Positions 16,843-32,453 of a DNA stretch of 32,737 nucleotides are shown here, in pieces (the first letter of the stretch is position 1; each line of letters starts with the position of its first letter). The DNA is from Candidatus Binatia bacterium (GTDB lineage: Bacteria > Methylomirabilota > Methylomirabilia > Rokubacteriales > CSP1-6), in assembly GCA_035574035.1 (NCBI GenBank), contig DATLZL010000216.1, forward strand, positions 1 through 32,737, in the 5' to 3' direction. The notes under the pieces are model-generated. The model did no database searches. It worked only from the letters and a program-made list of their open reading frames with translations, and was not told the origin of the DNA. The translations under genes and the position numbers were made by a program.

Positions 16843-17631
16843 TCAGCCGGCCACGGCGGGCCGCGTGCGCCGGTGGGTCCAGGCCAGCCCGGCCAGGGCC
16901 ACCAGGACCCCCGCCACGCTGGCCAGCTGGGGGACCCGGAACTGGCCGAGCCAGAAGCTGTCGAGCCGGAGCGCCTCGATGGCGAAGCGCCCCACGGAAT
17001 AGAGCCCGATGTAGACGAAGAAGAGCGCGCCGGGGTGGGCTCGCAAGCGGGGCCGGAACCAGAGGACGAGCGCCAGGAACACGCCGAAGTCCCAGAGTGA
17101 TTCGTAGAGGAACGTCGGGTGGAAGTAGTCGTACTGCGCGTACCCGGGGGGGCGATGAGGGGGCGAGATGTAGAGCTTCCACGGCAAGTCCGTCGGCCGG
17201 CCGAATGCCTCCTCGTTGAAGAAGTTGCCCCACCGCCCGATGGCTTGCCCGATCGCCAGGCTGGGTGCGGCGATGTCGAGGCCCCGCAGCACGGGCAATC
17301 TCCACCTCCAGGCCAGCCAGGCCCCGACCAGCGGGCCCACGACGAGCCCGCCGTGGATCGCCAGGCCGCCCTCCCACACCGCGATGATCTTCCTCGGGTA
17401 CTGGCCGTAGTAGTCCCAGTTGAAGACGACCTCCCAGAGGCGGGCGCCGACCAAGCCGGCCAGGATCGCCCACTGAGCGGCGGCGATGATGTCGTCGGCC
17501 GGCAGCCCCTCGCGGCGCGCCTGCCGGTGGCCCAGCCAGAGGCCGACGACGATCGCCAGCGCCATGAGGATGCCGTACCAGCGGATGACGATGGGCCCGA
17601 TCTCGAAGGCGACTGCGCCGGGCGAGGCCAT
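16843..17631 (-). CDS. lgt: Prolipoprotein diacylglyceryl transferase
   Basis: 262 aa, polytopic. Motifs: IRWYGILMALA, WEGGLAIHGG, GRWGNFFNEEAFG. Confidence 0.9.
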   Translation of the reverse strand: MASPGAVAFEIGPIVIRWYGILMALAIVVGLWLGHRQARREGLPADDIIAAAQWAILAGLVGARLWEVVFNWDYYGQYPRKIIAVWEGGLAIHGGLVVGPLVGAWLAWRWRLPVLRGLDIAAPSLAIGQAIGRWGNFFNEEAFGRPTDLPWKLYISPPHRPPGYAQYDYFHPTFLYESLWDFGVFLALVLWFRPRLRAHPGALFFVYIGLYSVGRFAIEALRLDSFWLGQFRVPQLASVAGVLVALAGLAWTHRRTRPAVAG

Positions 17632-17689
17632 GCTCGCCTCGTACGATAGCGTGGTCGGGCGGGGATTTCCAACGAACCCCCCGGGAGGA

Positions 17690-17779
17690 TGGTAGGGGCG
17701 GCAGGATTCGAACCTGCAAGTCCTCGCCGAGGACCGAGGGGTTTAAGCCCTCTGCCTGTTCCAGTTCGGCAACGCCCCC
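17690..17779 (-). tRNA. tRNA-Leu (anticodon UAA), class II with long variable arm
   Basis: Hand fold of the reverse complement. Acceptor GGGGGCG / CGCCCCU (G1:U72 wobble). Anticodon stem-loop GAGGG-CTTAAAC-CCCTC. 18-nt variable arm. T arm GCAGG-TTCGAAT-CCTGC. Discriminator A, encoded CCA. Confidence 0.85.
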
Positions 17780-17815
17780 GCGAGCGGGACCCGGGATCTC
17801 AGGCGCGCGGTGAAG

Positions 17816-17858
17816 TGGAGGCGGCGAGCGGATTCGAACCGCTGAATAGAGGTTTTGC
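17816..17858 (-). repeat. Orphan 3' part of tRNA-Cys (anticodon to CCA); distal att-type direct repeat of the island
   Basis: 43/43 nt identical to 29056-29098. Identity stops exactly at the anticodon. No 5' tRNA half follows. Confidence 0.85.
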
Positions 17859-17982
17859 CAGCCCGCCTCAGCCCGCGCCTCTACCCGGGCCCATCTCCCA
17901 CAATCCGCGCTATCTCGCGTGTTTACGAGTGGCCGAAGTATACCCCGGAAACCCGATTCGGCCGAGGAAATCAGGGTCGGTC

Positions 17983-18005
17983 TAGCAAAGTAGTAGCTAA
18001 GTCGA
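17983..18005 (+). repeat. 23-nt direct repeat, copy 1 (TAGCAAAGTAGTAGCTAAGTCGA), 124 nt inside the left att repeat
   Basis: 21/23 identical to 28968-28990 in the same orientation. A partial inverted copy CTACTAC lies at 18017-18023. Confidence 0.7.
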
Positions 18006-18019
18006 GCCGCCCCGACCTA

Positions 18020-18498
18020 CTACACCAGGCTCCACCGCGGCGGTTTCCGGCCGGCGTGGGTGCCGACGCCAAAGTACTCCAAGATGTCCACGCGAGCGAC
18101 GCGGAACCCCTCACCCATGACATCGATCGTTCCGCCGCACCGGTAGCAGCTGGGCGCCGAAAAGCCGCCGTCGACGGCTCTCTTAACGGCCCGAATCTGT
18201 CGACGCGAGCCCAGTGCCGCGTAGTCTGTCGCGAGGTACGGACCCCACACATCCGGAGGTCTTGGCGACTCCTCCAGGGCTCTCGCCTCCATGTACGCAC
18301 AGGCCATACACTTTGGCACAAGCACCCAAGGTTCACGGCCGTGGCGTAACCGCGACGGCGTCGGGCGCGACGGACGGTCTCGCACACCCGTGCGACAACC
18401 CAGGCTATGCGTTCGACCTCCCATCGTCGCTCCGCGCGCACGTACTCTTCCCACAGCTGGTTCATATCGGGGGGATCGAAGCTCTCTGTCTCGCGCAC
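18020..18498 (-). pseudogene. Frameshifted small gene; the C-terminal part carries two CxxC pairs (possible zinc ribbon)
   Basis: GTG at 18496-18498 is preceded by AGGAGG about 11 nt upstream and opens a protein-like frame (MRETESFDPPDMNQLWEEYVRAERRWEVERIAWV...). Near 18335 the protein-like signal moves to another frame (...PKCMACAYMEARALEE...CYRCGGTIDVMGEGFRVARVDILEYFG), which ends at TAG 18020-18022. Confidence 0.4.
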
Positions 18499-18781
18499 GT
18501 CGCAGACCGCCTCCTACTTGAGTCGGACAACGTTTTACCGGGCCCGCCAAAGAGCTCGAGCGGAGGTTTGTGAACCTGACGCCTTCCGTAACTGCGCGTC
18601 GACGCCCACTTTGCCGGCTCGCTTACCTGAAACTTATCTACTCCGGCGGGCTCCCGAGGCCCGCCCGGGAGGCCGGGCTCTATGGGTACTGACCCCGAGT
18701 TCCCTGTCCCTCCACCGCCGGTTCCGGGGCCGGCCCGAAGCGCCCGCGGCGTCTTTGGCCCCGCAAGGAGCACCCGTTGCC

Positions 18782-19110
18782 CTATCGAGCTGGCCGCTCC
18801 GGTCTCCGAATAGCCAGGATCCACACGCCGAAGCAGAGGATGGCGCCGCCGGCGATGAAGCCGGACAGGGACTTGCCCGCTCGTAGCGGGTGAAGATGCC
18901 CTTGTCCATGAGGCTGGCGTGGACCCTCGGGCGGATCTCGTTCTCGGCCTTGACGACGGGGATGGTGAGTACAAGAACGGCGAACGGGCGGCGAGCACCA
19001 GCGCCATGACGCCGACAGCCAGCGCCAGTCCCAGGAAACCCAGCAGATCCCAGAGGACGGTGCCGAGGAAGGCCAGACCGTAGATGATGACGCCGAGCGA
19101 GGACGTCGTC
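18782..19110 (-). pseudogene. Degraded small membrane-protein gene (three pieces in three frames)
   Basis: Hydrophobic segments continue across two frame changes. Piece 1: LGVIIYGLAFLGTVLWDLLGFLGLALAVGVMALVLAA. Piece 2: VLVLTIPVVKAENEIRPRVHASLMDKGIFTRYERA. Piece 3: GKSLSGFIAGGAILCFGVWILAIRRPERPAR, ending at a stop (18782-18784). Confidence 0.3.
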
Positions 19111-19449
19111 GCTGGCTGGCAGCCCGGTGGGCGCCGCCGTCGGGCCCGGAAGCTTCGGGGCAACCCTACGGATCAGCGACTCGCCTCATAGGGGGACGGA
19201 AGCGGAGCCTCTCAACCTCTCGCAGTAGACCCACCGCCTCGTCGGACGACGCCGGCTGCAGCGGGTGGGGCGCAGCGCAAGACCGGTCAGCAGGAACTCG
19301 ATCCCAGCCCAGTCGAAGGGTGGTACAACGCATGGCGTCACTCGGCGCTCGACCACTGCTGCCCAAGGCGGCCCTCCAGTTCACTCTCCTCGGAACCGGC
19401 CCAGCTCCAGAGCATCACGCCTCAAAGGCTGCGGCCTTCGCGGATAGGG

Positions 19450-20958
19450 TCAGGCCGCATCCTCCGCGAATGCCTCCTCACGTCTGGCGCGGACGGCTGG
19501 CAGCGTCACCGCCACCAGGGCTGCCAGCGCCAGCAGGAGCATCGCCGCGCTCAGCGGACGCCGGAGGAAGACGGTGGGGTCTCCTCGCGATAGCAACAAC
19601 GCCCGTCGCAGGTACTCCTCCATCATGGGCCCCAGGATGAACCCAAGGAGCATTGGCGCCGGCTCGCAGTCGAGCCGCGCACAGGCGTAGCCGAACACCC
19701 CGAACAGCGCCATGAGGTAGACGTCGATGACACTGTTGTTCAACGTGAAGACCCCGACCGCGCAGAATGCCAGGATGGTCGGGTAAAGCGCGTGATACGG
19801 AACCCGGACGAGCCGCACCCACACCCCGATCAAGGGCAGGTTCAGCACCAGCAGGAACATGTTGCCGATCCACATGGATGCGACAACGCCCCAGAACAGG
19901 TCCGGCTGCTCCTTCGTCACCGCGGGACCCGGCTGGATTCCGTGAATGACCATTGCCCCTACCATGAGGGCCATCACCGGGTTGCTGGGAATCCCGAGCG
20001 TCAGCATCGGGATGAATGAGGTCTGCGCCCCTGCGTTATTGGCTGCCTCCGGGCCGGCCACACCCTCGATCGCGCCCTTGCCGAACTCCTGTCTGAAGCG
20101 AGACGCCTTCTTCTCCAACGAGTATGATGCGAAGGACGCCAGCGTCGCCCCGCCGCCGGGCAGGACGCCGAGGACCGAGCCCAATGCGGTCCCCCGGAGG
20201 ATCGGAGCCGCCATCCGCTTCCAGTCCTCCCGCCTGGGCATCAGGCTCGTGATCACCGGCACCGCGCCCGCCGTTGTTTCCCGCTCCACGTTCCTGGCCA
20301 CCTCCGCGAGACCGAACATCCCCATGGCGACCACCACGAACCCGATGCCGTCCGACAATTCGGCCACGCCCAGGGTGTACCGCTGGACTCCCGAGTTCAC
20401 ATCCGTTCCCACCAGGCCGAACAGCAGGCCGGTCACCGTCATGGCGATCGCCTTCAGGGGCGACCCGTGCGCGAGCACCACGGCCGCGATCAACCCCAGC
20501 ACCATCAGCGAGAAGTACTCCACCGGCCCAAACCCCAGCGCCAGGTTTCCCAGGGGCGGTGCAGCCACGGCCAGGACGAGCGTGGCCACGGTCCCCGCGA
20601 AGAACGAGCCGATGGCCGCCGTCGCCAGGGCCACGCCGCCTCGCCCCTGCCGCGCCATCAGGTGGCCCTCGAGCGCCGTGACCACAGACGACGTCTCCCC
20701 GGGCAGGTTCACGAGGATGGCCGTGGTCGACCCCCCGTACTGCGCGCCGTAGTAGATTCCCGCGAGCATGATCAGGGCCGCGGCTGGTGGCAGCGTGAAG
20801 GTCGCCGGTAGCAACATCGCGATCGTGACCACCGGCCCGAGTCCCGGCAGTACGCCGATGAGCGTCCCCAGCGACACGCCGATCACGCAGTAGAGCAGGT
20901 TCCCGGGGGCGAGCGCCGACGCCAGCCCTAGGCTGAGGTGGCTCCACAGGTCATGCAT
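19450..20958 (-). CDS. tctA: Tripartite tricarboxylate transporter, large permease TctA
   Basis: ATG (MHDLWSHL) lies 1 nt after the tctB stop. Family-typical sequence: GVSLGTLIGVLPGLGPVVTIAMLLP..YYGAQYGGSTTAILVNLPGE.. Confidence 0.9.
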   Translation of the reverse strand: MHDLWSHLSLGLASALAPGNLLYCVIGVSLGTLIGVLPGLGPVVTIAMLLPATFTLPPAAALIMLAGIYYGAQYGGSTTAILVNLPGETSSVVTALEGHLMARQGRGGVALATAAIGSFFAGTVATLVLAVAAPPLGNLALGFGPVEYFSLMVLGLIAAVVLAHGSPLKAIAMTVTGLLFGLVGTDVNSGVQRYTLGVAELSDGIGFVVVAMGMFGLAEVARNVERETTAGAVPVITSLMPRREDWKRMAAPILRGTALGSVLGVLPGGGATLASFASYSLEKKASRFRQEFGKGAIEGVAGPEAANNAGAQTSFIPMLTLGIPSNPVMALMVGAMVIHGIQPGPAVTKEQPDLFWGVVASMWIGNMFLLVLNLPLIGVWVRLVRVPYHALYPTILAFCAVGVFTLNNSVIDVYLMALFGVFGYACARLDCEPAPMLLGFILGPMMEEYLRRALLLSRGDPTVFLRRPLSAAMLLLALAALVAVTLPAVRARREEAFAEDAA

Positions 20959-20959
20959 G

Positions 20960-21421
20960 TCAGTGCCCAAGCCCGGGGCCGAGAATCGGCATGGGCAGCC
21001 CGAGCAGCTTCACGAAGACCAATACGCTGAAGGCCGCCAGCGCGCCCGCCAGCGCCAGGGCCGTCCGCCAGGAAAATCGGCGGCTTGCCCACGAACTCAC
21101 AACGACCAGCACAACGAGCGCTGGCACCACACCCGTCCGGCGCACCAGAACGCCGAACAGCAGCGTCGCAACCGTGATGACCGCGAGCGGCACGAGGGTC
21201 AGGCGACCCACGGGCGCGCCGCGCACCGCGAGCGCCCGCAGCGCCAGCACCCCGCCCAAAACCGCAAGAAGCCCGCCGAGCACCAAGGGGAAGTAGGCGG
21301 GCCCCATCCGCGTCGCGGACCCCATCGGATGATGCCGGACCAGGAGCACTGCGGCAACTCCCAGGCCGGCAAACATGACGCCGGCCCAGAAATCCCTCGG
21401 CGCCCGGATCGTACCGCCCAC
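20960..21421 (-). CDS. tctB: Tripartite tricarboxylate transporter, small subunit TctB
   Basis: 153 aa with a GTG start and four predicted hydrophobic helices. It sits between tctC and tctA. Confidence 0.8.
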   Translation of the reverse strand: MGGTIRAPRDFWAGVMFAGLGVAAVLLVRHHPMGSATRMGPAYFPLVLGGLLAVLGGVLALRALAVRGAPVGRLTLVPLAVITVATLLFGVLVRRTGVVPALVVLVVVSSWASRRFSWRTALALAGALAAFSVLVFVKLLGLPMPILGPGLGH

Positions 21422-21455
21422 GCTCTCGTCGCCTTCGAGGACAGCGGAGCGCCGG

Positions 21456-22430
21456 CTACTCCTCCGGTTTGATGTCCGCGGCGCGAATCACGGACTCCCA
21501 TTCCGCGTATTCCCTGGCCACACGTTCGGCGAGCTGCGCCGGCGTGCTGGAGGTGGCGGTCACACCGAAGCCTGCGAACCGGTCGCGGATCTCCGGAGTG
21601 GCAAGGGCCTCCGCTAGCGCGGCATTGAGCCGACCGATGACGTCGGGCGGCGTGCCCGCTGGCGCGAAGACGCCAAACCACACCTCAGTGGAGAAGTTCG
21701 GGACTGTCGCGGCGATCGGGACGGCGCCGGGTGCCAGCGGGGAGGGCCGAAGCGACGACACTCCGAGGAGTCTCACCTTTCCCTCTTTGATGTGGGTGTT
21801 CATCGCGGACGATGTGGTGGTCATCAGAACCTTCACCTCGCCGCTGAGCACGGCCATCGTCGCGGGCGCCTGTCCCTTGTACGGCACGTGCAGCATACGG
21901 ATGCCCGCCGCCTTACTGAATAGCTCGGTGGCCAGGTGACCGAATGATCCGTGCCCGGCGGTCGCGTATTCGAGTTTGCCCGGATTGGCCTTCGCATACC
22001 TGATCAGCTCGCGCACGCTGTTGGCCGGCACGCTCGGATGCACCACCAGCAACATCGGCGCGAGTGAGATCAGGGAAACCGGGGCCAGGTCCTTGATCGG
22101 ATGGTATCCGGCATCCTGGCTCAGGCTGGGCGTGATGACCAGAGCGTTGTTGGGGAAAAGCAGCGTGTGTCCGTCCGGCGTGGCGCGCGCCACCTGTCGG
22201 GTCGCCAAAGCGCCGGCTGCGCCCGGCCGGTTGTCCACGACGATCGGTTGCCCCAGGATCCGGCGAAGCGGCTCTTGCAGCACGCGGACTTGCAAGTCGC
22301 TAGTGCCCCCTGGTGGGTACGGCACGACGATCTGGATCGGCCGGCTGGGAAACGCGCCCTGTCCGCTCGCTGGGGACGGAACAGTTAATGCGATCACTCC
22401 CGCCATTACGACCACCAGCGCCCAAACCAT
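21456..22430 (-). CDS. tctC: Tripartite tricarboxylate transporter substrate-binding protein (TctC/Bug family)
   Basis: 324 aa. A signal peptide is followed by PSRPIQIVVPYPPGGTSDLQVRVL...VVDNRPGAAGALAT, the typical Bug-family start. Confidence 0.9.
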   Translation of the reverse strand: MVWALVVVMAGVIALTVPSPASGQGAFPSRPIQIVVPYPPGGTSDLQVRVLQEPLRRILGQPIVVDNRPGAAGALATRQVARATPDGHTLLFPNNALVITPSLSQDAGYHPIKDLAPVSLISLAPMLLVVHPSVPANSVRELIRYAKANPGKLEYATAGHGSFGHLATELFSKAAGIRMLHVPYKGQAPATMAVLSGEVKVLMTTTSSAMNTHIKEGKVRLLGVSSLRPSPLAPGAVPIAATVPNFSTEVWFGVFAPAGTPPDVIGRLNAALAEALATPEIRDRFAGFGVTATSSTPAQLAERVAREYAEWESVIRAADIKPEE

Positions 22431-22454
22431 TCCGAGCCTCCTGTTCCTACGGGT

Positions 22455-23702
22455 TCACACCGGACCATCGCTCTCGGCCGCCGCCACCTGTTCAACTGCG
22501 GCTCCCACCGGGCCGACGGCCTGGTGCAGCACGCCTTCCCGCCTCAGCGCCATCACCTGGCTGTCCGAGTACCCGAGCAACCTCGAGACGATTTCCGCGC
22601 CGTGCTCGCCCAGCTCCGGTACCCAGCCGCCGGCGCTGGCCGCGCCGCGGCTGAACCGAAACGGCGGCTCGGGCACGCGCAGTGGCCCGGCGCCGTCGTT
22701 GATCGTCCGAAACGATGCCCGTTCCCGCACCGGCGGCAGGTCCATCGCCTGGCGGACGCTGAAGTACCTCGAGCACGGCACGCCTGCCGCCGTCAGGACG
22801 GCCTCACACTCCTCAGCACTCCGCCCGGCTGCCCACGCTTCCAGCAGCTGGAGAAGTTCGCTCCAGTAGTGTTCGCGCGCCGCCACGGTGGCGAACCGCG
22901 GATCGGCCGTCCACTCGGGGCGGCCCACCGCTCGGGCCAGCGCTTCGAAGTTCTTCTGGCTGACCGGTGCCACGAGTACGAACTCATCCTTCGTGCGCAT
23001 CGGCTCGTACACGGGACGGCGGCGCTCGGCTGGGAACTGCGCCTCCTGGCACTCATACACGAGCATGCTCATCATCGCGTCCATCAGGGACAGGTCGATG
23101 TACTCGCCACGTCCCGTCCGGACCGCCCGATACAACGCGGCCTGAATCGCACCAAACGCCAGCGCCCCTCCCAGCACGTCGGCAACGAAGATCCCGGTCT
23201 TGAGCGGCCGTTCACTCCCACCCTGGTACATGAGATTGGCGACATCGAAGCCGCTCACCGCATGGAGCACGGGAGCATACGCGCTGCGGGCGGCCCATGA
23301 CCCAGTCTGGCCGAATCCCGAAATCGAGCAGTACACGAGGCGCGGATTCGAGCCCTCAAGCGTCTCATATTCCAGCCCCAGTCGCTGCATCACACCCGGC
23401 CGGAAGTTCTCGACGACGACGTCGCACCGGGCGGCAAGCGCGATGACCAACTCCCTCGCCGCAGGCTTCTTCAGGTCCAGGGCGATACTCTTCTTTCCGC
23501 AGTTGAGCTGAGCGAAGTACGCGCTCCGTCCATTTCGGAGCGGCGGCCGCAGCCGCATGTGATCTCCCTCCGGCGGCTCGACCTTAATGACCTCCGCACC
23601 GAGGTCAGCCATCAGCCGCGTGCAGTAGGGCCCCGACATCATCGCGCTGAAGTCGAGGACCCGCACGCCTGCGAGCATTCCCTTGTCGCCCATCGCCGTC
23701 AT
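22455..23702 (-). CDS. Family III CoA-transferase (CaiB/BaiF type)
   Basis: 415 aa. Motifs: LAGVRVLDFSAMMSGPYCTRLMADLGAEVIKVEPPEGD...VVVENFRPGVMQRLGL.Y..L...NPRLVYCSISGFGQTG. Confidence 0.9.
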   Translation of the reverse strand: MTAMGDKGMLAGVRVLDFSAMMSGPYCTRLMADLGAEVIKVEPPEGDHMRLRPPLRNGRSAYFAQLNCGKKSIALDLKKPAARELVIALAARCDVVVENFRPGVMQRLGLEYETLEGSNPRLVYCSISGFGQTGSWAARSAYAPVLHAVSGFDVANLMYQGGSERPLKTGIFVADVLGGALAFGAIQAALYRAVRTGRGEYIDLSLMDAMMSMLVYECQEAQFPAERRRPVYEPMRTKDEFVLVAPVSQKNFEALARAVGRPEWTADPRFATVAAREHYWSELLQLLEAWAAGRSAEECEAVLTAAGVPCSRYFSVRQAMDLPPVRERASFRTINDGAGPLRVPEPPFRFSRGAASAGGWVPELGEHGAEIVSRLLGYSDSQVMALRREGVLHQAVGPVGAAVEQVAAAESDGPV

Positions 23703-23732
23703 TTCCCGCCCGCGCTCGTCGGTCGGCGGGGG

Positions 23733-24875
23733 TTACGCCAGCAGGTGCCGCGCGATCACCAACCGCTGGATCTGGTTCGTGCCTTCGAAGATCTGGTTGA
23801 TCTTGGCGTCGCGCATCATGCGCTCCACCGGGTAATCCTTCATGTAGCCGGCGCCGCCGAAGATCTGCACTGCGTCTGTCGTCACCCGCATCGCGACATC
23901 GCTAGCGAAACACTTGGCCATGGATGCCATCTCCGTCAGGCGCGAGAAGTCTCCCGCGTCCACGAGGCGGGCACACTCGTAGACCAGTGCGCGAGCGGCC
24001 TCCACCTGCATCTGCATGTCGGCCAGCATGAACTGCAGGCCCTGGAAGTCGGCGATCGCTCGGCCGAACTGCCTGCGCTCCTTTGCGTAGGCGACGGCCG
24101 CGTCCAGGGCCCCCTGCGCGAGGCCCACAGCAGCCGCGCCCACTGTCGGTCGGTTCAGGTCGAGGATGCGCATCGCCGCGCGGAAGCCCTGGCCCTCCTG
24201 GCCGATCATATTCTCCGCGGGCACCCGCATCTCCTCGAAGTACAGCGAGACGTTGGGGACGCCGTGGAGTCCCATTTTGCGCTCGTTCTTTCCCACGTGG
24301 AATCCGGGCGTCCTCGTATCGACCAGGAAACAGCTGATCCCGTCGAACCCGCGCTCGCCCGAGGTCCGCGCGAACACCAGCACCCAGTGCGCGATGTTGC
24401 CCCACGTGATGTAGCACTTCTGTCCGTCGATGACCCAGCTGTCGCCATCCCGGCGCGCGCGCGTCTTCATCGCGCCCACGTCCGAGCCGGCCTCCGGCTC
24501 CGTGATCGCCACGGCCGTTAGGGTCCGCCCCTTGGCCGCCATCGGCAGCCAGCGCTGGCGCTGCTCCTCCGTCCCGAAGTGGAGCAACGGCAAGACCAGG
24601 CCGATAGAGTTCTGGCCCGCGATCAGCGCGCACGCCTCCGACACCCGGGCGATCTCCTCGCGAGCCAAGCAGACGGTCGTCAGGTCGCCGCCGGGCCCTC
24701 CATACCGCTCGGGGACCCAGAGCTGCATGAGGCCCATGTCGCCGAATACGTCGAACAGTCGCTCGGGAATACGGTCGGTCTCGTCGATCTCCGCGGCGAT
24801 CGGCCGGATTTCCCGCTCCACCATCGTCCGGATCGCGTCCCGCATCGCCAGCTGCGCTTCGTTCAGGTGCGGCAT
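23733..24875 (-). CDS. Acyl-CoA dehydrogenase (short/medium-chain-like)
   Basis: 380 aa. Motifs: AITEPEAGSD, WITWGN-type motif (YITWGNIAHW), and a C-terminal catalytic-base context IFEGTNQIQRLVIARHLL. Confidence 0.9.
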   Translation of the reverse strand: MPHLNEAQLAMRDAIRTMVEREIRPIAAEIDETDRIPERLFDVFGDMGLMQLWVPERYGGPGGDLTTVCLAREEIARVSEACALIAGQNSIGLVLPLLHFGTEEQRQRWLPMAAKGRTLTAVAITEPEAGSDVGAMKTRARRDGDSWVIDGQKCYITWGNIAHWVLVFARTSGERGFDGISCFLVDTRTPGFHVGKNERKMGLHGVPNVSLYFEEMRVPAENMIGQEGQGFRAAMRILDLNRPTVGAAAVGLAQGALDAAVAYAKERRQFGRAIADFQGLQFMLADMQMQVEAARALVYECARLVDAGDFSRLTEMASMAKCFASDVAMRVTTDAVQIFGGAGYMKDYPVERMMRDAKINQIFEGTNQIQRLVIARHLLA

Positions 24876-25747
24876 GGCTTCGTCCTCGTGTGCGTGGTGC
24901 CTGCGCTCATTGGTCGGGCTGGCCGGTCGCCCAGTCGCTGGCTCCTCGTGTCACTCCGCCCTCTCCGCAGGATCCCGGTCCGGTCCACACAACGCCTCAG
25001 CACCGCCAGTTCGCGCACCGTGGGAGGGGGCGTCGTGGCGACGTCCGGCGGGACGTCCAGCACGAAGCCGGTCCGTGCCACGACCTCCGCCACGCTCACG
25101 CCCGGGTGGACGGAGCGCAGCTGCATGGATCGAGTGACGGGATGGAAGTCCAGCACCGCCAGCGGCGTCACTACGAGTCGAGGGCCCTCGGTCTCCAAGC
25201 CCAGTTCGCTCGCCCGGCTGCTACCGCCCCGGTAGTGACCCACGGCCGAGATGAAGTCCACACGCTCTACCAGGTTCTGGCGGTCGTGGCGTGCGAGCAG
25301 GACAAAAAAGTGCTTCGCGAAGGCCGCCAACGGGCTGGTGCCGATTACGCCAGGGCCGCGCACCTTGGGGCGCGCGTGGTCCCCGATCACGACCGTGTTG
25401 AGGTTGCCGTGGCGGTCCACCTGCATAGCACCCAGGATGGCGAAATCGAAGAAGCCCGGCCGCCAGTCGATGACGTCGATCATCACGCTCAAGTCGACCA
25501 CGGCCTCCGCGTGCCGGATCAGCCGGGCGTCCGCGGTGGGCAGCAGCGCGCCCGCGTCCGCGTTCACCGTGCCGAGCGGGCCCGACACCCAGGAGAGCGA
25601 GGGTGCATGCATGGCCCGCGCCAGGTTGCACGCCGCTACCTGCACGTCCGAGGCCGTGCCGACGATTCCGACCTCGCCGTCCGCCAGCTCCCGGGCCAGG
25701 ATGATCGCCTGGAGCTCCGCAGTGGTCCACGTGCTCGCCGCATTCAT
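24863..25747 (-). CDS. Class I CoA-transferase, subunit B (glutaconate/3-oxoacid CoA-transferase-like)
   Basis: ATG (MNAASTW..) overlaps the subunit A stop as ATGA. Sequence: IVGTASDVQVAACNLARAMHAP...GAMQVDRHGNLN. The 3' end overlaps the acyl-CoA dehydrogenase start by 13 nt. Confidence 0.75.
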   Translation of the reverse strand: MNAASTWTTAELQAIILARELADGEVGIVGTASDVQVAACNLARAMHAPSLSWVSGPLGTVNADAGALLPTADARLIRHAEAVVDLSVMIDVIDWRPGFFDFAILGAMQVDRHGNLNTVVIGDHARPKVRGPGVIGTSPLAAFAKHFFVLLARHDRQNLVERVDFISAVGHYRGGSSRASELGLETEGPRLVVTPLAVLDFHPVTRSMQLRSVHPGVSVAEVVARTGFVLDVPPDVATTPPPTVRELAVLRRCVDRTGILRRGRSDTRSQRLGDRPARPMSAGTTHTRTKPCRT

Positions 25748-26703
25748 CGCTCGTCCCCCTCGCACCCGGTACGGGCACGCCGCGCCCCGCGCCGCACAAG
25801 CTCCCGGTACCTTTCCTCTCCGACCCGCACGTAGCGGTCGAGGTACTTCTCATACGCATCCGGCCTAGTGCCCGCTTCCACGTACGCGCGTAGGTGCCCC
25901 TCGTCGGGGTCGTACAGCGTGTGACTTCCCGTCGGGTGGGCGCCTCGCGGACACTCGACCACGGCGGTCACCAGGTACGAGGGCAACTTCGTCCGTTCGG
26001 GCACCCGCCGGATGGTCCGGGTTGGGACCAGACGGTCGACGCTCACAACGACGCGCCGCGCGGCCATGGCCAGCAGGGGGTCGAAGAACGCGCCACCCAG
26101 CAGTTGCGCGTTCCCGTACTCGTCAGCCTGCTGGGCGTGGACGAGTACGACGTCCAGGCGGATCGGCGGAACGGCGAGCAGGCGACGGCCGTCTACTGCC
26201 GGGAGGGGTCGGTACCACTCCGGGTTGACCCGCGGCAAGTCCGTTCCCACGTCGAAAATCGGCACATACGGCAGGCCGTCCGCTGCGGCCCGGAGCCCGG
26301 CGGCCAGTCCGGGTCCATCCATCTCCAGCACCTGGAGCGCCCCGGACTCGCTCCGGCGGCGGAAGTTCGGCGCAAATCCTAGGTGCTCGAACGTGATGAA
26401 GACGCAGAAGACCCGCGAGACCGAACCCGCGCCGATCAGCAGGTCGGGGCCGATGCTTCCCGGCGCCGGCACGAGCGTCAGGTCCCGTCGGCCCGCGCGC
26501 GCCAGGGCCCTCACCAGAGCCATGGGCGTGTTGTAGAAAATCCACCCACCCAGCCCCACGGTGGCGCCGTCCTCCACGAGCCTCACCGCATCATCCAGTG
26601 TCACGACCTTCCGACGCCGGACGGACAAAGGCCTCCCGACAGTACCCTCCGATTCGGCCGCAGGACCGGCGCCGCGAGCCCCGAGCGTACCGTGCGGATT
26701 CAT
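25744..26703 (-). CDS. Class I CoA-transferase, subunit A
   Basis: ATG at 26701-26703 overlaps the gntR stop as ATGA; a GTG at 26712 is an alternative start. Sequence: LDDAVRLVEDGATVGLGGWIFYNTPMALVRAL...VHAQQADEYGNAQL. Confidence 0.75.
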   Translation of the reverse strand: MNPHGTLGARGAGPAAESEGTVGRPLSVRRRKVVTLDDAVRLVEDGATVGLGGWIFYNTPMALVRALARAGRRDLTLVPAPGSIGPDLLIGAGSVSRVFCVFITFEHLGFAPNFRRRSESGALQVLEMDGPGLAAGLRAAADGLPYVPIFDVGTDLPRVNPEWYRPLPAVDGRRLLAVPPIRLDVVLVHAQQADEYGNAQLLGGAFFDPLLAMAARRVVVSVDRLVPTRTIRRVPERTKLPSYLVTAVVECPRGAHPTGSHTLYDPDEGHLRAYVEAGTRPDAYEKYLDRYVRVGEERYRELVRRGARRARTGCEGDER

Positions 26704-27395
26704 GTGCGCCACGACCGCCGCCGCGCTGTCCCGCGCAGCAACTGCTGGACTTCGATGATGTGGCGCCTCAGCTCCCGCTTCGCCGCGCGCCCGTTGCCGG
26801 TCAGCAGATGATTCAGGATCGTCCGGTGCGATGTGTGGGTGGCCGTCGACAGGCGCCGCGAACTGCCGACCTTGGTCAGCATGGGCTCGAAGATGTCCAG
26901 CAGCGCCCGGATCAGCAGTGGGTACACCGGGTTGCCTGTGGCCTCCGCGAGCTGGACGTGAAACTCGAAGTTCGCTCGGGAGCTCGCCACCAGATTCCCG
27001 GCCTTGAAGTCCGCCGTGGCGCGATCGATGGACTCCAGGATCCTGCGGAGCGCGGTCTTCGGCGGCTTGGCGGCCAGCGTATCGACGATGAGGGCCTCCA
27101 GGCCCAGACGGACCTCGGTGACCTGCTCAAGGGTGAACTCGCCGAAGCGCAGGAGGTCCGAGAGCGAGCGCGTCACCGCCTTGGTGTTGCGCATCTCCAC
27201 AAAGGCGCCGCCGCCCTTGCCTGGCCGGATGCGGATCAGGCCGCCCTGCTCCAGCACGCGCAGCGCCTCGCGGATGGCCCCGCGCCCCACCTGGAATTGC
27301 CGCACGAGTTCCCGCTCGGCTGGCAGCCGGTCCCCCTGACGGTAGCCCCCGTCCAGGATCGCCGCGCGCAGGTGTTCGACTACCTTCTCGAACAC
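26700..27395 (-). CDS. GntR-family regulator with FadR/FCD-type C-terminal domain
   Basis: 231 aa with a GTG start. wHTH: GDRLPAERELVRQFQVGRGAIREALRVLEQGGLIRIRPGKGGGAFV. It is the first gene of the cargo operon. Confidence 0.9.
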   Translation of the reverse strand: MFEKVVEHLRAAILDGGYRQGDRLPAERELVRQFQVGRGAIREALRVLEQGGLIRIRPGKGGGAFVEMRNTKAVTRSLSDLLRFGEFTLEQVTEVRLGLEALIVDTLAAKPPKTALRRILESIDRATADFKAGNLVASSRANFEFHVQLAEATGNPVYPLLIRALLDIFEPMLTKVGSSRRLSTATHTSHRTILNHLLTGNGRAAKRELRRHIIEVQQLLRGTARRRSWRT

Positions 27396-27425
27396 GCGCG
27401 GGCCTCGGAGCGCAGGAAACGCTGT

Positions 27426-27441
27426 GGTAATAGGTATGACC
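27426..27441. promoter_or_regulatory. Candidate GntR-type operator dyad GGTAATA-GG-TATGACC
   Basis: Imperfect palindrome (half sites GGTAATA / GGTCATA) 31 nt upstream of the gntR GTG, in an AT-rich gap. It has the GT-N-AC flavour of GntR-family operators. No experimental or comparative support. Confidence 0.3.
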
Positions 27442-27609
27442 TTTTTGGCTTGGGCTTCTTTGTATCCTAGACCCAGGGCCGTGTCAAGCCTCTCGTTAGG
27501 TGGCGTTGGTCTTTTCTCAGGAGAAGAAGGAAATGACGGAAAAACGCCACATCATGGGCCCTTGAACGAGCAGAATTTCTCGAAGCCGGAAGCCGGAGTA
27601 ACTCAATTC

Positions 27610-28040
27610 CTGTAACAGCGACGGCAGATCCCTCACGCACGGCGGTCCACTCATCCCACGTCCGCAGCGGCACCTGCTGGCGCAGGGCCTCCAGGGCGGG
27701 ATTGGCGCGGTGCGGCCGCCGCGAGCGGATGCGGTGAAAAATCCAGCTAAGAATGGGACCTCTCCCTGGGACCATCACCGGAGGTCAAGGAAAGGGGGAG
27801 CCCAGGGGGTGGAGCAGCCGGTCGAGGGGTGACCGGGCTGCCGGCCAAGAGCGCCTGCAGCACAGCTGGCGTGACCGGGAGCCCCTGGGTGCTGCTCCAG
27901 GCCGCGAGCAGCGGGGGTAGGACAGCCATGGGAGCATGCCGCACAGCCGGTCGCTGGCGAGCCAGAAGCGCTCAAGCACCGGCAGGAGCTCCGGGCCCGT
28001 AGCGGCGCGAGCGGCCCGGCCGCCGGTCGGCGGGCCGCGC
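27610..28040 (-). mobile_element. Heavily frameshifted remnant of the N-terminal part of a DDE (integrase-core type) transposase
   Basis: Fragments in three frames read RPGRSRRYGP / ELLPVLERFWLASDRLCG / LPPLLAAWSSTQGLPVTPAVLQALLAGSPVT / LDRLLHP / ALRQQVPLRTWDEWTAV. This order matches my memory of one transposase family's N-terminus. No catalytic domain follows and no terminal inverted repeats were identified. Confidence 0.35.
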
Positions 28041-28072
28041 CACGCCCCGCAGGATTAGGCAACGGCAAATGC

Positions 28073-28970
28073 TCCCTCCGGCGCATCGAAGACGCCGTCA
28101 ACCACCTGCGCGGCTTCTTCGGCACCATGCGCGCGGTCGACATTACCACCGACCGCATCCGCCCCTGCATCGCCTAGAGCTAGCTAGCGGCTCGCCAAGC
28201 GCCCCGGCAACGTCAAGAACCCGCCTTCGCCAAGACCACCAGCGCGGCCCCCGTCAACCGCGAACTGGCCGCCCTGTGGCGGATGTTCCGGGTTGCCTGC
28301 ACGATGGGCGGGTGGCGCGCCTGCCCCACATGCCGCTCCTCGGCGAGGACAACGCCCACGCCGGCTTCTTCGAGCGCGACCAGTACGAGGCCGTCCGGGC
28401 CGAGCTCCCGGAGCACCTGCGCCCCGTGACGGACTTCGCCTACCTAACCGGTTGGCGCATCGGCGAGATCCTCGGCTTGACCTGGCGCCAGGTCGACTTC
28501 TCGGCCGGGGTGGTCCGGCTGGAGGTGGGCACGACGAAGACGGGCGAGGGGCGGACGTTCCCCTTCGACCTCCTCCCGCCCCTCGGCGAGCTCCTCCAGC
28601 GACAGCGCGAGCACACCAGCGCCCTGGAGCGGGCCCCCGGGCGGATCATCCCCTGGGTCTTCCACAGCCACGGCGCCCCCATCCGCAGCTACCGCAGTGC
28701 CTGGGTCGGGGCACGGCGTCGTGCGGGGCTGCCCGGCCGGGTGCCGCACGACTTCCGGCGGACGGCCGTCTGCAACCTCGAACGTGCCGGGGTGCCCCGG
28801 TCGGTGGCCGTGAAGCTTACCGGGCATAAGACCGAGTCTGTCTACCGGCGTATGCCGTGGTGAGCGAGGGGGACCTCCGCGAGGGCGTCGCCAAGCTCGC
28901 CGCCCTGCACCGGGCCCAGGCCGATACGCCGGGAGCGTTCGTGTTCCTCGGGGCGCCCCGCACGAATTAG
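28073..28970 (+). pseudogene. Tyrosine recombinase (phage-type integrase), inactivated
   Basis: N-terminal SAM-like segment LRRIEDAVNHLRGFFGTMRAVDITTDRIRPCIA is followed by in-frame TAGs at 28175-28177 and 28181-28183. A frame change occurs before PHMPLLGEDNAHAGFFERDQYEAV. The catalytic region carries YLTGWRIGEI (Arg), HDFRRTA (HxxR) and GHKTESVYRR. A 1-nt frame change at the expected RY nucleophile gives a premature TGA at 28861-28863. The family-like tail VVSEGDLREGVAKLAAL continues in another frame to TAG 28968-28970. Confidence 0.75.
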
Positions 28971-28990
28971 GCAAGTAGTAGCTAAGTCGA
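28968..28990 (+). repeat. 23-nt direct repeat, copy 2 (TAGGCAAGTAGTAGCTAAGTCGA), 65 nt inside the right att repeat
   Basis: 21/23 identical to 17983-18005. It starts at the terminal TAG of the integrase remnant. Confidence 0.7.
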
Positions 28991-29055
28991 CCGCGGAATG
29001 AGGGCCGGGACCCGGGTGGGGCGCTTGGTAACCTGCGAGAAAACTGGGCGGGGTT

Positions 29056-29130
29056 TGGAGGCGGCGAGCGGATTCGAACCGCTGAATAGAGGTTTTGCAG
29101 ACCTCCGCCTTGCCACTTGGCTACGCCGCC
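29056..29130 (-). tRNA. tRNA-Cys (anticodon GCA), intact; its 3' 43 nt form the proximal att repeat
   Basis: Hand fold. Acceptor GGCGGCG/CGCCGCC. D arm GCC-AAGTGGCAA-GGC. Anticodon arm GAGGT-CTGCAAA-ACCTC. T arm AGCGG-TTCGAAT-CCGCT. Discriminator U, encoded CCA. Confidence 0.9.
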
Positions 29131-29149
29131 AGCCGACGGGGCGGGGCGC

Positions 29150-29224
<75 letters not shown>

Positions 29225-29278
29225 GTCCGGTCCCCTCCGACAGCCCCACATACTACCACGCGCCCGGCGGCCGTCCAG

Positions 29279-30283
29279 TCAGCCGGCCGCCTCGCGGAGC
29301 GAGGTGGCGGCGTCCTCGGGCGGCACCGGGTTGATGAAGAACCCGCTGCCCCACTCGAAGCCGGCCACCCGCGTCAGCTTCGGGATCACCTCCAGGTGCC
29401 AGTGGAACTCGTCGAGCGCCGGCTCCTGCAGCGGCGCGCTGTGGAGCATGAAGTTGTACGGCGGATCGCCGAGCACCCGGTTCAGGCGGCGGAGGAAGTC
29501 GCCCAGCACCCCGGCCAGCGCCCGCAGGTCGTCCGGCCCCGAGTCCTCGAAGTGGGAGCGGTGGCGCGTGGGCAGGATCCAGGTCTCGAACGGAAAGCGG
29601 GGGGCGAACGGCGCCAGCACCGCGTACTGGGGCGTCTCGGCGATCAGCCGCCGGCAGCCCCGCCGCTCCTCGCGCACGATGTCGCACCACACGCAGCGTT
29701 CCTTGATCGCGTAGTAGCGCAGCGCACCGGTCAGTTCCTCCGTCACCATGATGGGGATGATCGGCGTGGCGATGAGCTGGGAGTGCGCGTGCTCGAGCGA
29801 CGCCCCGGCTGCCTCGCCGTGGTTCTTGAAGACCAGGATGTACTGGAAGCGGGCGTCCTTCTTGAGATCGAGCATCCGCTCCCGGAAGGCCAGCAGCACC
29901 TCGGCCACCGCCTCGGTCGGGAGGCTGGCCAGCGTCGCGTCGTGGACCGGCGTTTCGATGACGACCTCGTGAGCGCCGATGCCCGACATGCGGTCGTAGG
30001 GACCTTCCCCGCTCGGCTCCAGCTCCCCCTCGATGCGGAGGGCCGGGAACTTGTTGGGGACCACACGGTACGTCCAGCCCGGCGTGTTCGGCGGGCTGCC
30101 TGGGGGCCGGCCGGCCAGGATCTCGGGCGGGGTCCGATCCTCGGACCCGGGACAGAACACGCAGCTGGTCAGGCGGGGCCGCACCGGCTCGGGCCCGAAG
30201 TCGCTCGGCCGCCGGGCCCGCTCGGCGGAGATGATGACCCAGCGTCCCACCACCGGGTCCTTGCGCAGCTCGGACGCCGTCAT
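29279..30283 (-). CDS. galT: Galactose-1-phosphate uridylyltransferase-like HIT-family nucleotidyltransferase
   Basis: Internal ATG (MTASELRKDP...) overlapping the gpsA stop as ATGA; 334 aa. Zn motif CVFCPG. NKFPAL. Active-site motif HAHSQL. The precise substrate is not inferable from sequence reading. Confidence 0.8.
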   Translation of the reverse strand: MTASELRKDPVVGRWVIISAERARRPSDFGPEPVRPRLTSCVFCPGSEDRTPPEILAGRPPGSPPNTPGWTYRVVPNKFPALRIEGELEPSGEGPYDRMSGIGAHEVVIETPVHDATLASLPTEAVAEVLLAFRERMLDLKKDARFQYILVFKNHGEAAGASLEHAHSQLIATPIIPIMVTEELTGALRYYAIKERCVWCDIVREERRGCRRLIAETPQYAVLAPFAPRFPFETWILPTRHRSHFEDSGPDDLRALAGVLGDFLRRLNRVLGDPPYNFMLHSAPLQEPALDEFHWHLEVIPKLTRVAGFEWGSGFFINPVPPEDAATSLREAAG

Positions 30284-31266
30284 CCGTCCTCGGCTCCCGC
30301 CGCCCGGTCGAGCAGCGCGGCCAGCGCCTGGCCGGGCGGCGTACCGCCGAAGAGCACCCGGTGCACCTCGACGCAGATCGGCAAGGTCACGCGGTGGCGC
30401 TCGCCCAGGGCCACCGCCGACGCGACGGTGCGTGCGCCCTCGGCGACCATCCGGGTCCGCCGCTCCACGCTGTCGCGGGTCTCGCCGCGCACCAGCGCCA
30501 GGCCGAGCGCGCGGTTGCGGGACAGGCTCCCCGTGCACGTGAGCACCAGGTCCCCGAGCCCGGCCAGGCCGGCCAGCGTGGCCGCCTGCCCGCCCATCGC
30601 CACCGCCAGGCGGGTGATCTCCGCCAGGCCGCGGGTGATCAGCGCCGCGCGGGCGTTCTCGCCCAGCCCCAGGCCGTCGGCCAGCCCGGTCGCGATGGCG
30701 ATGACGTTCTTCAGGGCGCCGCCGATCTCCACACCGACGACGTCCCGGTTGGTGTAGAGCCGGAACTCGCGCGTGCCGAGCACGCCCTGCAGGTGGGCGG
30801 TGAGCGCCGGATCGCCGGCGACCACGCAGGCGGTGGGCAAGCCCAGCGCCACCTCGCGGGCGAACGTCGGTCCCGAGAGCGCGGCGACCGGCGCGCCGGG
30901 GAAGCGCTCGGCGATGAGCTCGGTCATGCGCGCGTGGCGGACCGGGTCGAGGCCCTTGGCGGCCGAGACGAACGGCACCCCGCGCCCGACCGGCGGCAGG
31001 TCCTTGAGCGTGGCGGCGAAGAACTCCGACGGCACCGCGAGCAGGACGATCTCGGCTCCGGCCACCGCCTCCGCCTGGTCGGGAGTGGCGGTGAGACCCG
31101 CCGGGCACGGGATGTCGGTCAGGTAATAGGGATTGCGCCCCTCGCGCCGGATCCCGTCCACGACCTCGGGCTCCCGCGCCCAGAGGTGCACGGCATGCCC
31201 GGCGCGGGCCAGGTGGATCGCCAGCGCCGTGCCCCAGCTCCCACCGCCGACCACGGCGATGTTCAC
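30280..31266 (-). CDS. gpsA: NAD(P)H-dependent glycerol-3-phosphate dehydrogenase
   Basis: GTG start (VNIAVVGGGSWGTALA) overlapping the plsY stop as GTGA. Motifs: GPTFAREV, GGALKNVIAIATG. Confidence 0.9.
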   Translation of the reverse strand: MNIAVVGGGSWGTALAIHLARAGHAVHLWAREPEVVDGIRREGRNPYYLTDIPCPAGLTATPDQAEAVAGAEIVLLAVPSEFFAATLKDLPPVGRGVPFVSAAKGLDPVRHARMTELIAERFPGAPVAALSGPTFAREVALGLPTACVVAGDPALTAHLQGVLGTREFRLYTNRDVVGVEIGGALKNVIAIATGLADGLGLGENARAALITRGLAEITRLAVAMGGQAATLAGLAGLGDLVLTCTGSLSRNRALGLALVRGETRDSVERRTRMVAEGARTVASAVALGERHRVTLPICVEVHRVLFGGTPPGQALAALLDRAAGAEDG

Positions 31267-31862
31267 GCCCGCCGCGCTCCCAGGCGTCGCTCGGTGCCGG
31301 CCAGGAGCCGGGCGATGTTCTCGTGGTGACGGAAGATCACGATGGCCGCGCCGCCGGCGGCCGCGGCCACCACCGTCCACGGCGCACCCAGCCACAGCGC
31401 GCCCAGCGGCACGCAGAGCGCCCCGATGATGGAGCCGAGGGAGACGTAGCGGAACATCGTCGTCACCGCGAGCCAGACGAGCACCGCCGGCCCGACCGCC
31501 GCGGGCACGAGCCGCAGGAAGGCCCCGAGCCCGGTGGCCACGCCCTTGCCGCCGCGGAATCCGAGGAACACCGACCAGCCGTTGCCGACGATCGCCGCCA
31601 CCGCGCCGAGCGCCGGCGCCGCCGGCTCCCCCCCGCCGACGGCCTCCGCCGCGACGACGGCCAGGTAGCCCTTGGCCACGTCCCCCACCAGCGTGAGGAG
31701 CGCCGGCATCCGTCCCGCCGTCCGCAGCACGTTGGTGGCGCCGATGTTGCCGCTGCCGTGGTGGCGGATGTCGCCGATCCCCCAGGCCCGGGCCACCAGG
31801 AAACCGACCGGGACGGCGCCCACCAGGTAGGCCGTCAGGAAAGCCAGGAGCGTCAGGACCAC
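31263..31862 (-). CDS. plsY: Glycerol-3-phosphate acyltransferase PlsY
   Basis: GTG start (VVLTLLAFL...); 199 aa. Motifs: HGSGNIGATNVLR, GGKGVATGLG. The upstream part of the track ORF overlaps pgsA out of frame. Confidence 0.85.
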   Translation of the reverse strand: MVLTLLAFLTAYLVGAVPVGFLVARAWGIGDIRHHGSGNIGATNVLRTAGRMPALLTLVGDVAKGYLAVVAAEAVGGGEPAAPALGAVAAIVGNGWSVFLGFRGGKGVATGLGAFLRLVPAAVGPAVLVWLAVTTMFRYVSLGSIIGALCVPLGALWLGAPWTVVAAAAGGAAIVIFRHHENIARLLAGTERRLGARRA

Positions 31863-32422
31863 CGCTCCTCGCCGGGGACGATAGCCCGATAGTCCGCCTT
31901 GCGGAAGAACCGGTAGAAGTAGTCCGCCGCCGAGACCAAGGTCAGCACCAGCGCCGCCCACAGCACGGCGGTGGCCGCGGCGTGGAAGGCGACCGACCCG
32001 ACGCCCTTCTCGATGATCAACATGGTGATGGCGACATACTGACTCACCGTCTTCCACTTCGCCAGCCGCGAGGCGGGGACGATGACGCCGACGCCGGCGG
32101 CGACCGCCCGCAGCCCCGTGACGGCGAGCTCGCGGCCGATGATCACCACCACCATCCAGGGGGCGATCTTGTCGATGGCCAGCAGCGACACCAGGGCCGC
32201 CGCCACCAGCAGCTTGTCGGCGATGGGATCGAGCAGCGTGCCCAGCGTCGTCACCTGGTTGCGGCGGCGGGCCAGCACGCCGTCGAGCCAGTCGGTCACC
32301 GAGGCCAGGATGAAGATCGCGGCCGCGATGGCGGCGTGCACGCGGGACGACGAGATGAGGAACATGATGAGCAGCGGGGCGGCCACGATTCGCGTGACCG
32401 TGAGACCGATGGGCAGGTTCAC
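31853..32422 (-). CDS. pgsA: CDP-diacylglycerol--glycerol-3-phosphate 3-phosphatidyltransferase
   Basis: GTG start at VNLPIGLTVTR (residue 21 of the track ORF). CDP-alcohol phosphatidyltransferase motif DWLDGVLARR..TLGTLLDPIADK. Confidence 0.85.
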   Translation of the reverse strand: MNLPIGLTVTRIVAAPLLIMFLISSSRVHAAIAAAIFILASVTDWLDGVLARRRNQVTTLGTLLDPIADKLLVAAALVSLLAIDKIAPWMVVVIIGRELAVTGLRAVAAGVGVIVPASRLAKWKTVSQYVAITMLIIEKGVGSVAFHAAATAVLWAALVLTLVSAADYFYRFFRKADYRAIVPGEERWS

Positions 32423-32453
32423 GCCGGCACCCTGCGCACGGGCAGCGCAGGCA

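Follow-up and report, generated by a model that had tools for sequence, protein, structure and literature searches.

An 11,240-bp genomic island (repeat start to repeat start) was very probably inserted by a tyrosine integrase into the tRNA-Cys(GCA) gene of a Rokubacteria chromosome. It is located in contig DATLZL010000216.1 of the Candidatus Binatia bacterium assembly GCA_035574035.1. The whole stretch that we analysed, 32,737 nucleotides, is referred to as the window, and positions are given in its numbering. A preliminary description, made from the letters of the window, had proposed integrase-mediated insertion into the 3′ half of the tRNA gene. This proposal is now supported by the terminal repeat, the geometry of the integrase gene (int), empty sites in relatives, base composition, and junctions that were reproduced in other assemblies. 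The ends of the island are defined by the following features:

17690–17779, minus strand: tRNA-Leu(UAA), last gene of the split Gly-Cys-Leu run (ARAGORN; Rfam, 48.2 bits)
17816–17858, minus strand: orphan 3′ fragment of tRNA-Cys, the attR core, read as the displaced native 3′ part (43/43 match to 29056–29098)
28055–28970, plus strand: tyrosine integrase pseudogene in three frames (28055–28309, 28297–28851, 28851–28970; PF00589 and tblastn)
29056–29130, minus strand: intact tRNA-Cys(GCA) (ARAGORN; Rfam, 66.8 bits)
29056–29098, minus strand: attL core, the tRNA-Cys 3′ part presumably supplied by the element (repeat)
29150–29224, minus strand: tRNA-Gly(GCC) (ARAGORN; Rfam, 72.8 bits)

The two copies of the repeat were identical at all 43 positions, as the preliminary description had stated, and form the longest direct repeat within 15–32 kb. 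They represent the 3′ part of tRNA-Cys(GCA), beginning with the encoded CCA and extending to G34, the first base of the anticodon, again as described before. The right copy sits within an intact tRNA-Cys and the left copy is an orphan, separated from tRNA-Leu by a spacer of 36 nt (17780–17815); on this earlier assignment ARAGORN and Rfam agreed, and neither called the orphan fragment as a tRNA. An Rfam scan of 17000–29500 detected three tRNAs and no further RNA family. It had also been claimed that identity ends exactly at the anticodon. This held for the contiguous match; when a 1-nt gap was allowed, weak similarity between the copies ran on past the anticodon (CAG.CC.CC). The Cys fragment of a related contig, L097 (described below), differs from that of the window by one mismatch and a 1-nt indel, is without the extra C, and has 3 nt more that match the intact tRNA. 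The exact stop of identity is thus partly explained by a 1-nt indel in the window copy, and the original repeat probably reached slightly further into the anticodon loop.

A tyrosine-integrase remnant had been noticed just inside the intact tRNA, and our searches located it at 28055–28970 on the plus strand, reading towards the intact tRNA-Cys, 85 nt away. The open reading frame (ORF) 28003–28863(+) matched PF00589 with 62.9 bits, against a cut-off of 27.1. Using full-length homologs of 372–375 aa as tblastn queries, the pseudogene was divided into three segments:

28055–28309, frame +2: integrase segment matching homolog aa ~75–144 (tblastn)
28297–28851, frame +1: integrase segment matching homolog aa 141–325 (tblastn)
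28851–28943, frame +3: integrase segment matching homolog aa 326–356 (tblastn)
27396–28054, no strand assigned: degraded region, where the excisionase gene and the int 5′ end would be expected (no Pfam match; tblastn negative)

The segments are separated by two frameshifts, the second of which arose by loss of 1 nt immediately ahead of the codon for the catalytic Tyr; the restored frame around it reads ...GHKTESVYRR / YAVVSEGDLREGVAKLAAL. The catalytic motifs TGWR, HDFRR and GHK are kept, and the Tyr codon remains but is no longer in frame. No tblastn match with the full-length homologs was obtained for the first ~75 codons. Likewise, tblastn of 27396–28055 with the integrase N-terminus or with the HTH_17 protein of a related element (L056, see below) gave no match, and neither Pfam nor tblastn detected an excisionase-type (HTH_17) remnant in this region. 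Judged by these reading frames, the integrase is a member of the PF00589 family by descent and not an intact enzyme, and the recombination module is dead. Excision takes a functional integrase and a directionality factor, and the island has neither. With two frameshifts in int, a lost N-terminus and no excisionase found, the island is therefore probably no longer able to excise on its own.

If the island is an insertion, relatives are expected to have an uninterrupted tRNA run at this locus. The flanks were anchored by three genes:

16843–17631, minus strand: lgt, encoding prolipoprotein diacylglyceryl transferase, left flank (PF01790, 248 bits; TIGR00544, 219 bits, above cut-off)
29279–30283, minus strand: galT-like gene, right flank (PF01087 and PF02744; same position in relatives)
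31853–32482, minus strand: pgsA (PF01066; TIGR00560, 159 bits against a cut-off of 109)

Beyond tRNA-Leu, the left flank continues with lgt (a correction to an earlier note on this neighbour), rtcB and a radical-SAM gene. Beyond tRNA-Gly, the right flank continues with the galT-like gene, gpsA, plsY and pgsA. Homologs of the window Lgt at 80–93% identity belong to Rokubacteria/Methylomirabilota wherever they are named. Among the relatives whose context was fetched (Lgt 84–86% identical to that of the window), L001–L003 and L005–L007 have the order pgsA-plsY-gpsA-galT-tRNA-Gly(GCC)-tRNA-Cys(GCA)-tRNA-Leu(UAA)-(DUF218)-lgt-(rtcB)-radical SAM with nothing inserted, and their tRNA-Gly, tRNA-Cys and tRNA-Leu are spaced by 30–80 nt. 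Two further contigs have the same gene order without the island, with ~480 nt from galT to DUF218. When window 17600–17815 was joined to 29056–29300, the joined sequence aligned over its full length with L005: tRNA-Gly was identical, tRNA-Cys had two differences, and a short spacer preceded tRNA-Leu. The flank search suggested in the preliminary description thus recovered contiguous Gly-Cys-Leu tRNAs in related Rokubacteria, but no empty allele of the same species. The description had further expected excision to restore a Gly-Cys-Leu run downstream of pgsA; the run is indeed seen in relatives, although pgsA lies 2.6 kb upstream of tRNA-Gly. The comparison it drew with Escherichia coli, pgsA followed by glyW-cysT-leuZ, was verified in strain MG1655 (L096). 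The order pgsA...tRNA-Gly(GCC)-Cys(GCA)-Leu(UAA) is common to E. coli and, in another phylum, Rokubacteria (window 29150–32482; L001 5663–9219; L005 5723–9328); unlike E. coli, Rokubacteria have plsY, gpsA and the galT-like gene between pgsA and the tRNAs.

Two other loci were considered and set aside. L004 (GCA_044869815.1) was uninformative as an empty-site comparison: it has a different rearrangement without a tRNA-Cys fragment, and at 2200–2450, outer-membrane and lysyl-oxidase genes lie ahead of its tRNA-Leu(UAA)-lgt. L082 (4199–7284) has a related int at tRNA-Leu(UAA) and a tRNA-Cys 2.9 kb away, but no Cys repeat. From L004 and L082, it appears that rearrangement or insertion has recurred at the Gly-Cys-Leu locus. 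Exact-protein look-ups of the window Lgt, acyl-CoA (coenzyme A) dehydrogenase and galT-like protein returned no record.

The composition of the DNA changes at the same borders. The GC content is 68.0% in the island and 71.7% and 73.5% in the flanks. GC content at third codon positions (GC3) is 0.80–0.93 in nine island genes versus 0.94–0.97 in 12 flank genes, so that the two ranges are fully separate (Mann-Whitney p = 1.4e-4). Both measures confirm the earlier impression, gained from spot counts, that the interior is less GC-rich than the flanks. Tetranucleotide profiles shift over the same interval, in a test that is partly circular because each chunk belongs to its own reference pool.

Next, we asked whether the integrase and the island ends resemble those of related elements. 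The catalytic domain of the repaired integrase has thousands of homologs in soil metagenomes, at identities of up to 69%, and the 80 best metagenome loci (L012–L091) were surveyed. In 40 of the 80, a tRNA gene lies at most 350 nt downstream of the int 3′ end: Leu(CAA) in 12 loci, Leu(UAA) in 10, Ser(UGA) in six, Lys in five, Leu(UAG) in four, and Phe, SeC and Arg in one each. The tRNA is on the strand opposite to int, as in the window, at 31 of these 40 loci. A tandem pair of ~11 nt at the int 3′ end, with at least 8/9 positions matching and a period of 10–12, was found in 33 of the 40 int-tRNA spacers; shuffled spacers had a mean of 5.9/9 matching positions. The pair mostly lies 54–99 nt before the tRNA, commonly at about 75–80 nt. 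The sequence of this repeat varies with the tRNA that is targeted. By eye, a (C/G)TAAGT-like motif was also seen ~10–20 nt before the tRNA end in the int-tRNA spacers.

The window has a tandem at the same place as its relatives, TAGGCAAGT/TAGCTAAGT (7/9, period 11), which is included in a longer AT-rich repeat, AAGTAGTAGCTAAGTCGA. This repeat occurs inside each end of the island:

17988–18005, plus strand: 18-nt repeat AAGTAGTAGCTAAGTCGA, copy 1, 129 nt inside attR (repeat search, local alignment)
28973–28990, plus strand: 18-nt repeat AAGTAGTAGCTAAGTCGA, copy 2, immediately following the stop codon of the restored int frame, at a distance of 65 nt from attL

These are the only two copies in the window. 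The search was made with a 17-nt core, of which no copy is expected by chance; the 18-nt extent comes from local alignment. Copy 1 is identical in L097. In 596 Gb of genomes, AAGTAGTAGCTAAGTCGA had two matches (Listeria marthii and a Pseudolabrys metagenome-assembled genome), no more than expected by chance. At L009, no tRNA lies by the match and no ORF there is obviously of integrase size; a domain scan was not run on it.

Complete elements of the same integrase family were available for comparison. L056 (JGI Ga0315290_10012105; 1–6487) and L058 (Ga0315278_10019323) are ~6.3-kb elements in tRNA-Leu(UAA), each with both att repeats and both copies of its arm motif on one contig. Their att repeat is 36 nt long when exact (59 nt with one mismatch) and ends in the anticodon loop. 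An intact integrase of 372 aa is preceded by an HTH_17 (excisionase-type) gene, and a tandem motif of 22 nt, located where int ends and ~76 nt before the tRNA, is repeated ~120–140 nt inside the far end. The window resembles L056 and L058 in the end of its repeat at the anticodon loop, in the two-ended motif, and in an int that is directed towards the tRNA 3′ end; their integrase is 58% identical to that of the window. L056 and L058 differ from the window in their tRNA, their motif sequence, their intact int, the presence of the HTH_17 gene, and a small cargo. This cargo consists of a PDZ-domain protein and other ORFs without assignment. Since related integrases have tandem repeats at the same position and L056/L058 have the two-ended layout, we read the 18-mers as arm-type sites: they are probably bound by the integrase. 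We likewise take the two ends of the window island to be the ends of one element.

The island very probably arose by insertion, as follows. The attP of the element would have carried a copy of the tRNA-Cys 3′ part, and strand exchange would have taken place in the anticodon loop, the position suggested by the end of the repeat. A complete tRNA-Cys would thereby be rebuilt from the native 5′ part and the 3′ part of the element (attL, beside int), while the native 3′ part would become the orphan fragment (attR) that now lies at a distance of 36 nt from tRNA-Leu(UAA). The 18-nt repeats inside each end would probably be bound by the N-terminal domain of the integrase. The cargo, on the strand of the tRNA, would provide the import of a carboxylic acid, its activation as a CoA thioester and its oxidation. 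The recombination module has later decayed, leaving an island that is probably immobile.

Copies of the island were found in other assemblies. L008, a Logan contig from SRR7882662, is 100% identical to window 27775–29083 and stops 28 nt into the repeat. L097 (ENA, k141), L098 and L099 (JGI) were reached via the cluster of the cargo CoA-transferase. Their cargo is 96.7–96.9% identical to window 27503–19359, and it is followed by the identical 18-mer, the same Cys fragment, tRNA-Leu, and lgt-rtcB-radical SAM at 92.4% identity. Comparing the window with L097, third-codon-position identity was 0.918–0.970 in eight island genes and 0.768–0.870 in three flank genes. The pooled values were 0.936 for the island and 0.826 for the flank, i.e., a divergence of 6.4% versus 17.4%. 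As third positions have diverged less in the island than in the flank, the two island copies share a more recent origin than the two chromosomes. This points to a spread of the island from one lineage to another, for which integration at the same attB and homologous recombination through the flanks are both candidates, and suggests that the spread was recent. The similarity of L097 to the window ends at 27503, and the L097 and L098 contigs stop ~250 nt further. Just past the end of the similarity, they have a different tandem repeat, GGCCAGAATTTCCGGAA x2 with a period of 23 (L097 1–250, L098 1–236), which may be the arm of another element or mark a replaced int side.

Several observations weigh against this account of the island. 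The nearest relatives, with ~92% nucleotide identity in the flank, also carry the island, and the divergence comparison covers one flank and three genes. An exact 65-nt pattern for the empty attB of the window species had no match in the JGI metagenome contigs. The integrase is non-functional, so that integration is deduced from its scars; tRNA-Cys is not the target at any of the 80 closest integrase loci; and the window tandem, at 7/9, is less regular than those of most relatives. Finally, the region 17859–19450 is without a functional assignment.

A second scenario is, in our view, unlikely but serious. Integration may have occurred once, in another lineage or an ancestor, and the already decaying island may have been received by homologous recombination through the conserved flanks, after transformation or transduction from a related Rokubacterium, with no insertion by its own integrase in this lineage. 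The scenario agrees with a third-position divergence that is 2.7-fold lower in the island than in the chromosome beside it, and with the location of the copies at an identical site with the same attR scar. It also agrees with the integrase being dead in the window. In addition, identity with L097 is already 0.955–0.97 from ~17400, some 400 nt outside the edge of the island, which would fit a recombination tract that extends into the flank. However, this outer stretch consists mostly of tRNA-Leu and the 5′ end of lgt and may simply be conserved, and the picture would be equal if near-identical elements had integrated independently at the same attB.

An assembly artefact is very unlikely. In such a case, a foreign island would have been threaded into the contig via the shared 43-nt tRNA-Cys sequence, or the contig would be a chimeric join. 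The window contig is derived from a metagenome, the composition of the island differs from that of the flanks, and the short-k Logan contig L008 stops inside the repeat, all of which could be taken in favour of an artefact. However, two separate mis-joins would be required, and both flanks match the synteny of a single locus in relatives. L008 independently joins int to tRNA-Cys at 100% identity, and the k141 assemblies of other samples (L097 and L098) run from cargo through the Cys fragment and tRNA-Leu to lgt and rtcB, with a repeat of 43 nt that is far shorter than k = 141. Independent assemblies thus reproduce both junctions, which argues against an artefact, the possibility that the preliminary description had named as one that would undo its reading.

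Equally hard to credit is a native catabolic operon that lies beside a local partial duplication of tRNA-Cys, with an unrelated integrase fragment nearby: int is the sole mobility gene that accompanies the cargo, and Tct systems and CoA-transferases are common in Rokubacteria, but eight relatives have nothing between tRNA-Cys and tRNA-Leu, the 18-nt repeat pairs both ends exactly as it does in the complete elements of this integrase family, every island gene has a lower GC3 than every flank gene, and the position and orientation of int follow the rule of its family.

The cargo of the inserted island consists of eight minus-strand genes that form one apparent operon:

19450–20970, minus strand: tctA, large membrane subunit of a tripartite tricarboxylate transporter (PF01970, 524 bits)
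20960–21421, minus strand: tctB (PF07331, 57 bits)
21456–22430, minus strand: tctC, periplasmic solute receptor (PF03401, 230 bits)
22455–23702, minus strand: family III (CaiB/BaiF) CoA-transferase (PF02515, 360 bits)
23733–24875, minus strand: acyl-CoA dehydrogenase (PF00441, PF02771, PF02770)
24863–25765, minus strand: family I CoA-transferase subunit, B-like (PF01144, 53 bits)
25744–26712, minus strand: family I CoA-transferase subunit, A-like (PF01144, 110 bits; TIGR02429, 75 bits, below cut-off)
26700–27395, minus strand: GntR/FCD transcriptional regulator, first gene of the operon (PF00392, PF07729)

TctA, TctB and TctC are encoded by adjacent genes and all score above the Pfam cut-offs, as is characteristic of a tripartite tricarboxylate transporter. 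For the cargo enzymes, no NCBIfam equivalog reached its cut-off. The gene content suggests that a carboxylate is imported, activated with CoA and dehydrogenated. For the family III CoA-transferase, the closest named homologs (63–70% identity) are from Bradyrhizobium, Rhodopseudomonas, Variovorax, Burkholderiales, Piscinibacter, Azoarcus and other Proteobacteria. The cargo thus has proteobacterial homologs, whereas Lgt in the flank is 80–93% identical to Rokubacteria proteins. The order GntR/CoA_trans/CoA_trans/CoA_transf_3(/TctC) recurs in B. oligotrophicum S58, JGI contigs and a Variovorax replicon. In both Bradyrhizobium oligotrophicum S58 (AP012603, 2.448–2.453 Mb) and Variovorax paradoxus CP063167, the regulator and three CoA-transferase genes have the same order as in the window; the family III enzyme is 69–70% identical, and DNA similarity to Variovorax is ~70%. 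These proteobacterial modules lie inside larger lipid- or steroid-like degradation clusters and are not flanked by int and att sites. The window, unlike them, has the acyl-CoA dehydrogenase gene between the transferases and a full TctCBA.

Between the cargo and attR, two further features were recorded:

18017–18118, minus strand: remnant of an HNH endonuclease gene, broken by a ~240-nt (238–241 nt) deletion at 18031/18032
18139–19359, no strand assigned: variable segment, apparently non-coding or decayed (no Pfam/NCBIfam match, no clear GC3 frame)

The deletion was seen by alignment of the window with L097, in which an intact HNH gene of 113 aa (PF01844) is located at 9724–10065. The 1.2-kb segment 18139–19359 could not be aligned with the corresponding segment of L097 and marks a variable spot in the island. 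The 130 nt of island DNA beside attR are 97% conserved in L097. A hairpin beside the left 18-mer (GTAGTAG...CTACTAC) was dropped as a candidate for lack of conservation in L097. The insertion has placed 11.2 kb between tRNA-Leu(UAA) and the promoter region of tRNA-Gly/Cys. Scans for consensus promoters and for terminators at both ends of the island gave nothing useful and no promoter for tRNA-Leu; TATACT on the minus strand, at ~17937–17942, is a guess from reading the sequence.

The island combines repeats of the tRNA 3′ part, int beside the tRNA, a site that is unoccupied in relatives and a differing composition, which together characterize tRNA-integrated islands. Its ORFs had no Pfam/NCBIfam match to genes of integrative and conjugative elements (relaxase, coupling protein, type IV secretion) or, besides int, to phage genes (capsid, terminase, tail, lysis; PHROGs were not searched), and the HNH remnant is not diagnostic of a prophage. 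With neither conjugation nor phage-structural families among these matches, the island is therefore classified as neither an integrative and conjugative element nor a prophage. Tyrosine integrases of the lambda/P4 type drive other tRNA-targeting elements, with which the island shares a repeat of the tRNA 3′ part from the anticodon loop, int beside the reconstituted tRNA, repeats to either side of the core that are probably of the arm type in the window, a foreign composition, and empty sites in relatives. It differs from them in its host from an uncultured phylum, an int pseudogene with no excisionase left, and a cargo that is a metabolic operon without phage or conjugation genes. The anticodon-loop sublocation of tRNA-targeting integrative elements was reportedly treated by K. 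P. Williams in Nucleic Acids Res in 2002. As for the target, Podoviridae pelagiphages are said to use tRNA-Cys as attB, and papers on genomic islands of Burkholderia pseudomallei reportedly mention tRNA-Cys. These elements share the target gene of the window; their hosts and integrases are unrelated, and they are prophages or large pathogenicity/fitness islands.

The mechanism of tRNA-targeted integration is textbook knowledge, to which the island adds nothing new. What it offers is a clean, well-delimited horizontal gain of a carbon-source operon in an abundant uncultured soil phylum, with comparable parts at hand: att scars, probable arm sites, the empty site of relatives, and a second, slightly diverged copy. 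For Rokubacteria, it also identifies tRNA-Cys of the conserved pgsA...tRNA-Gly-Cys-Leu locus as a site of insertion. The stereotyped attP layout of a large integrase clade could help island-finding software and perhaps the development of tools. Tentatively, and with somewhat less than even confidence, we propose that an undescribed, tRNA-Cys-specific branch of a widespread soil integrase clade recently moved a proteobacterial-type organic-acid operon between Rokubacteria lineages, after which its recombination genes decayed. If so, the island would document, in a concrete and datable form, the flow of metabolic genes from another phylum into Rokubacteria, and its integrase clade would provide ready-made int/attP/attB pairs for a phylum without genetic tools.

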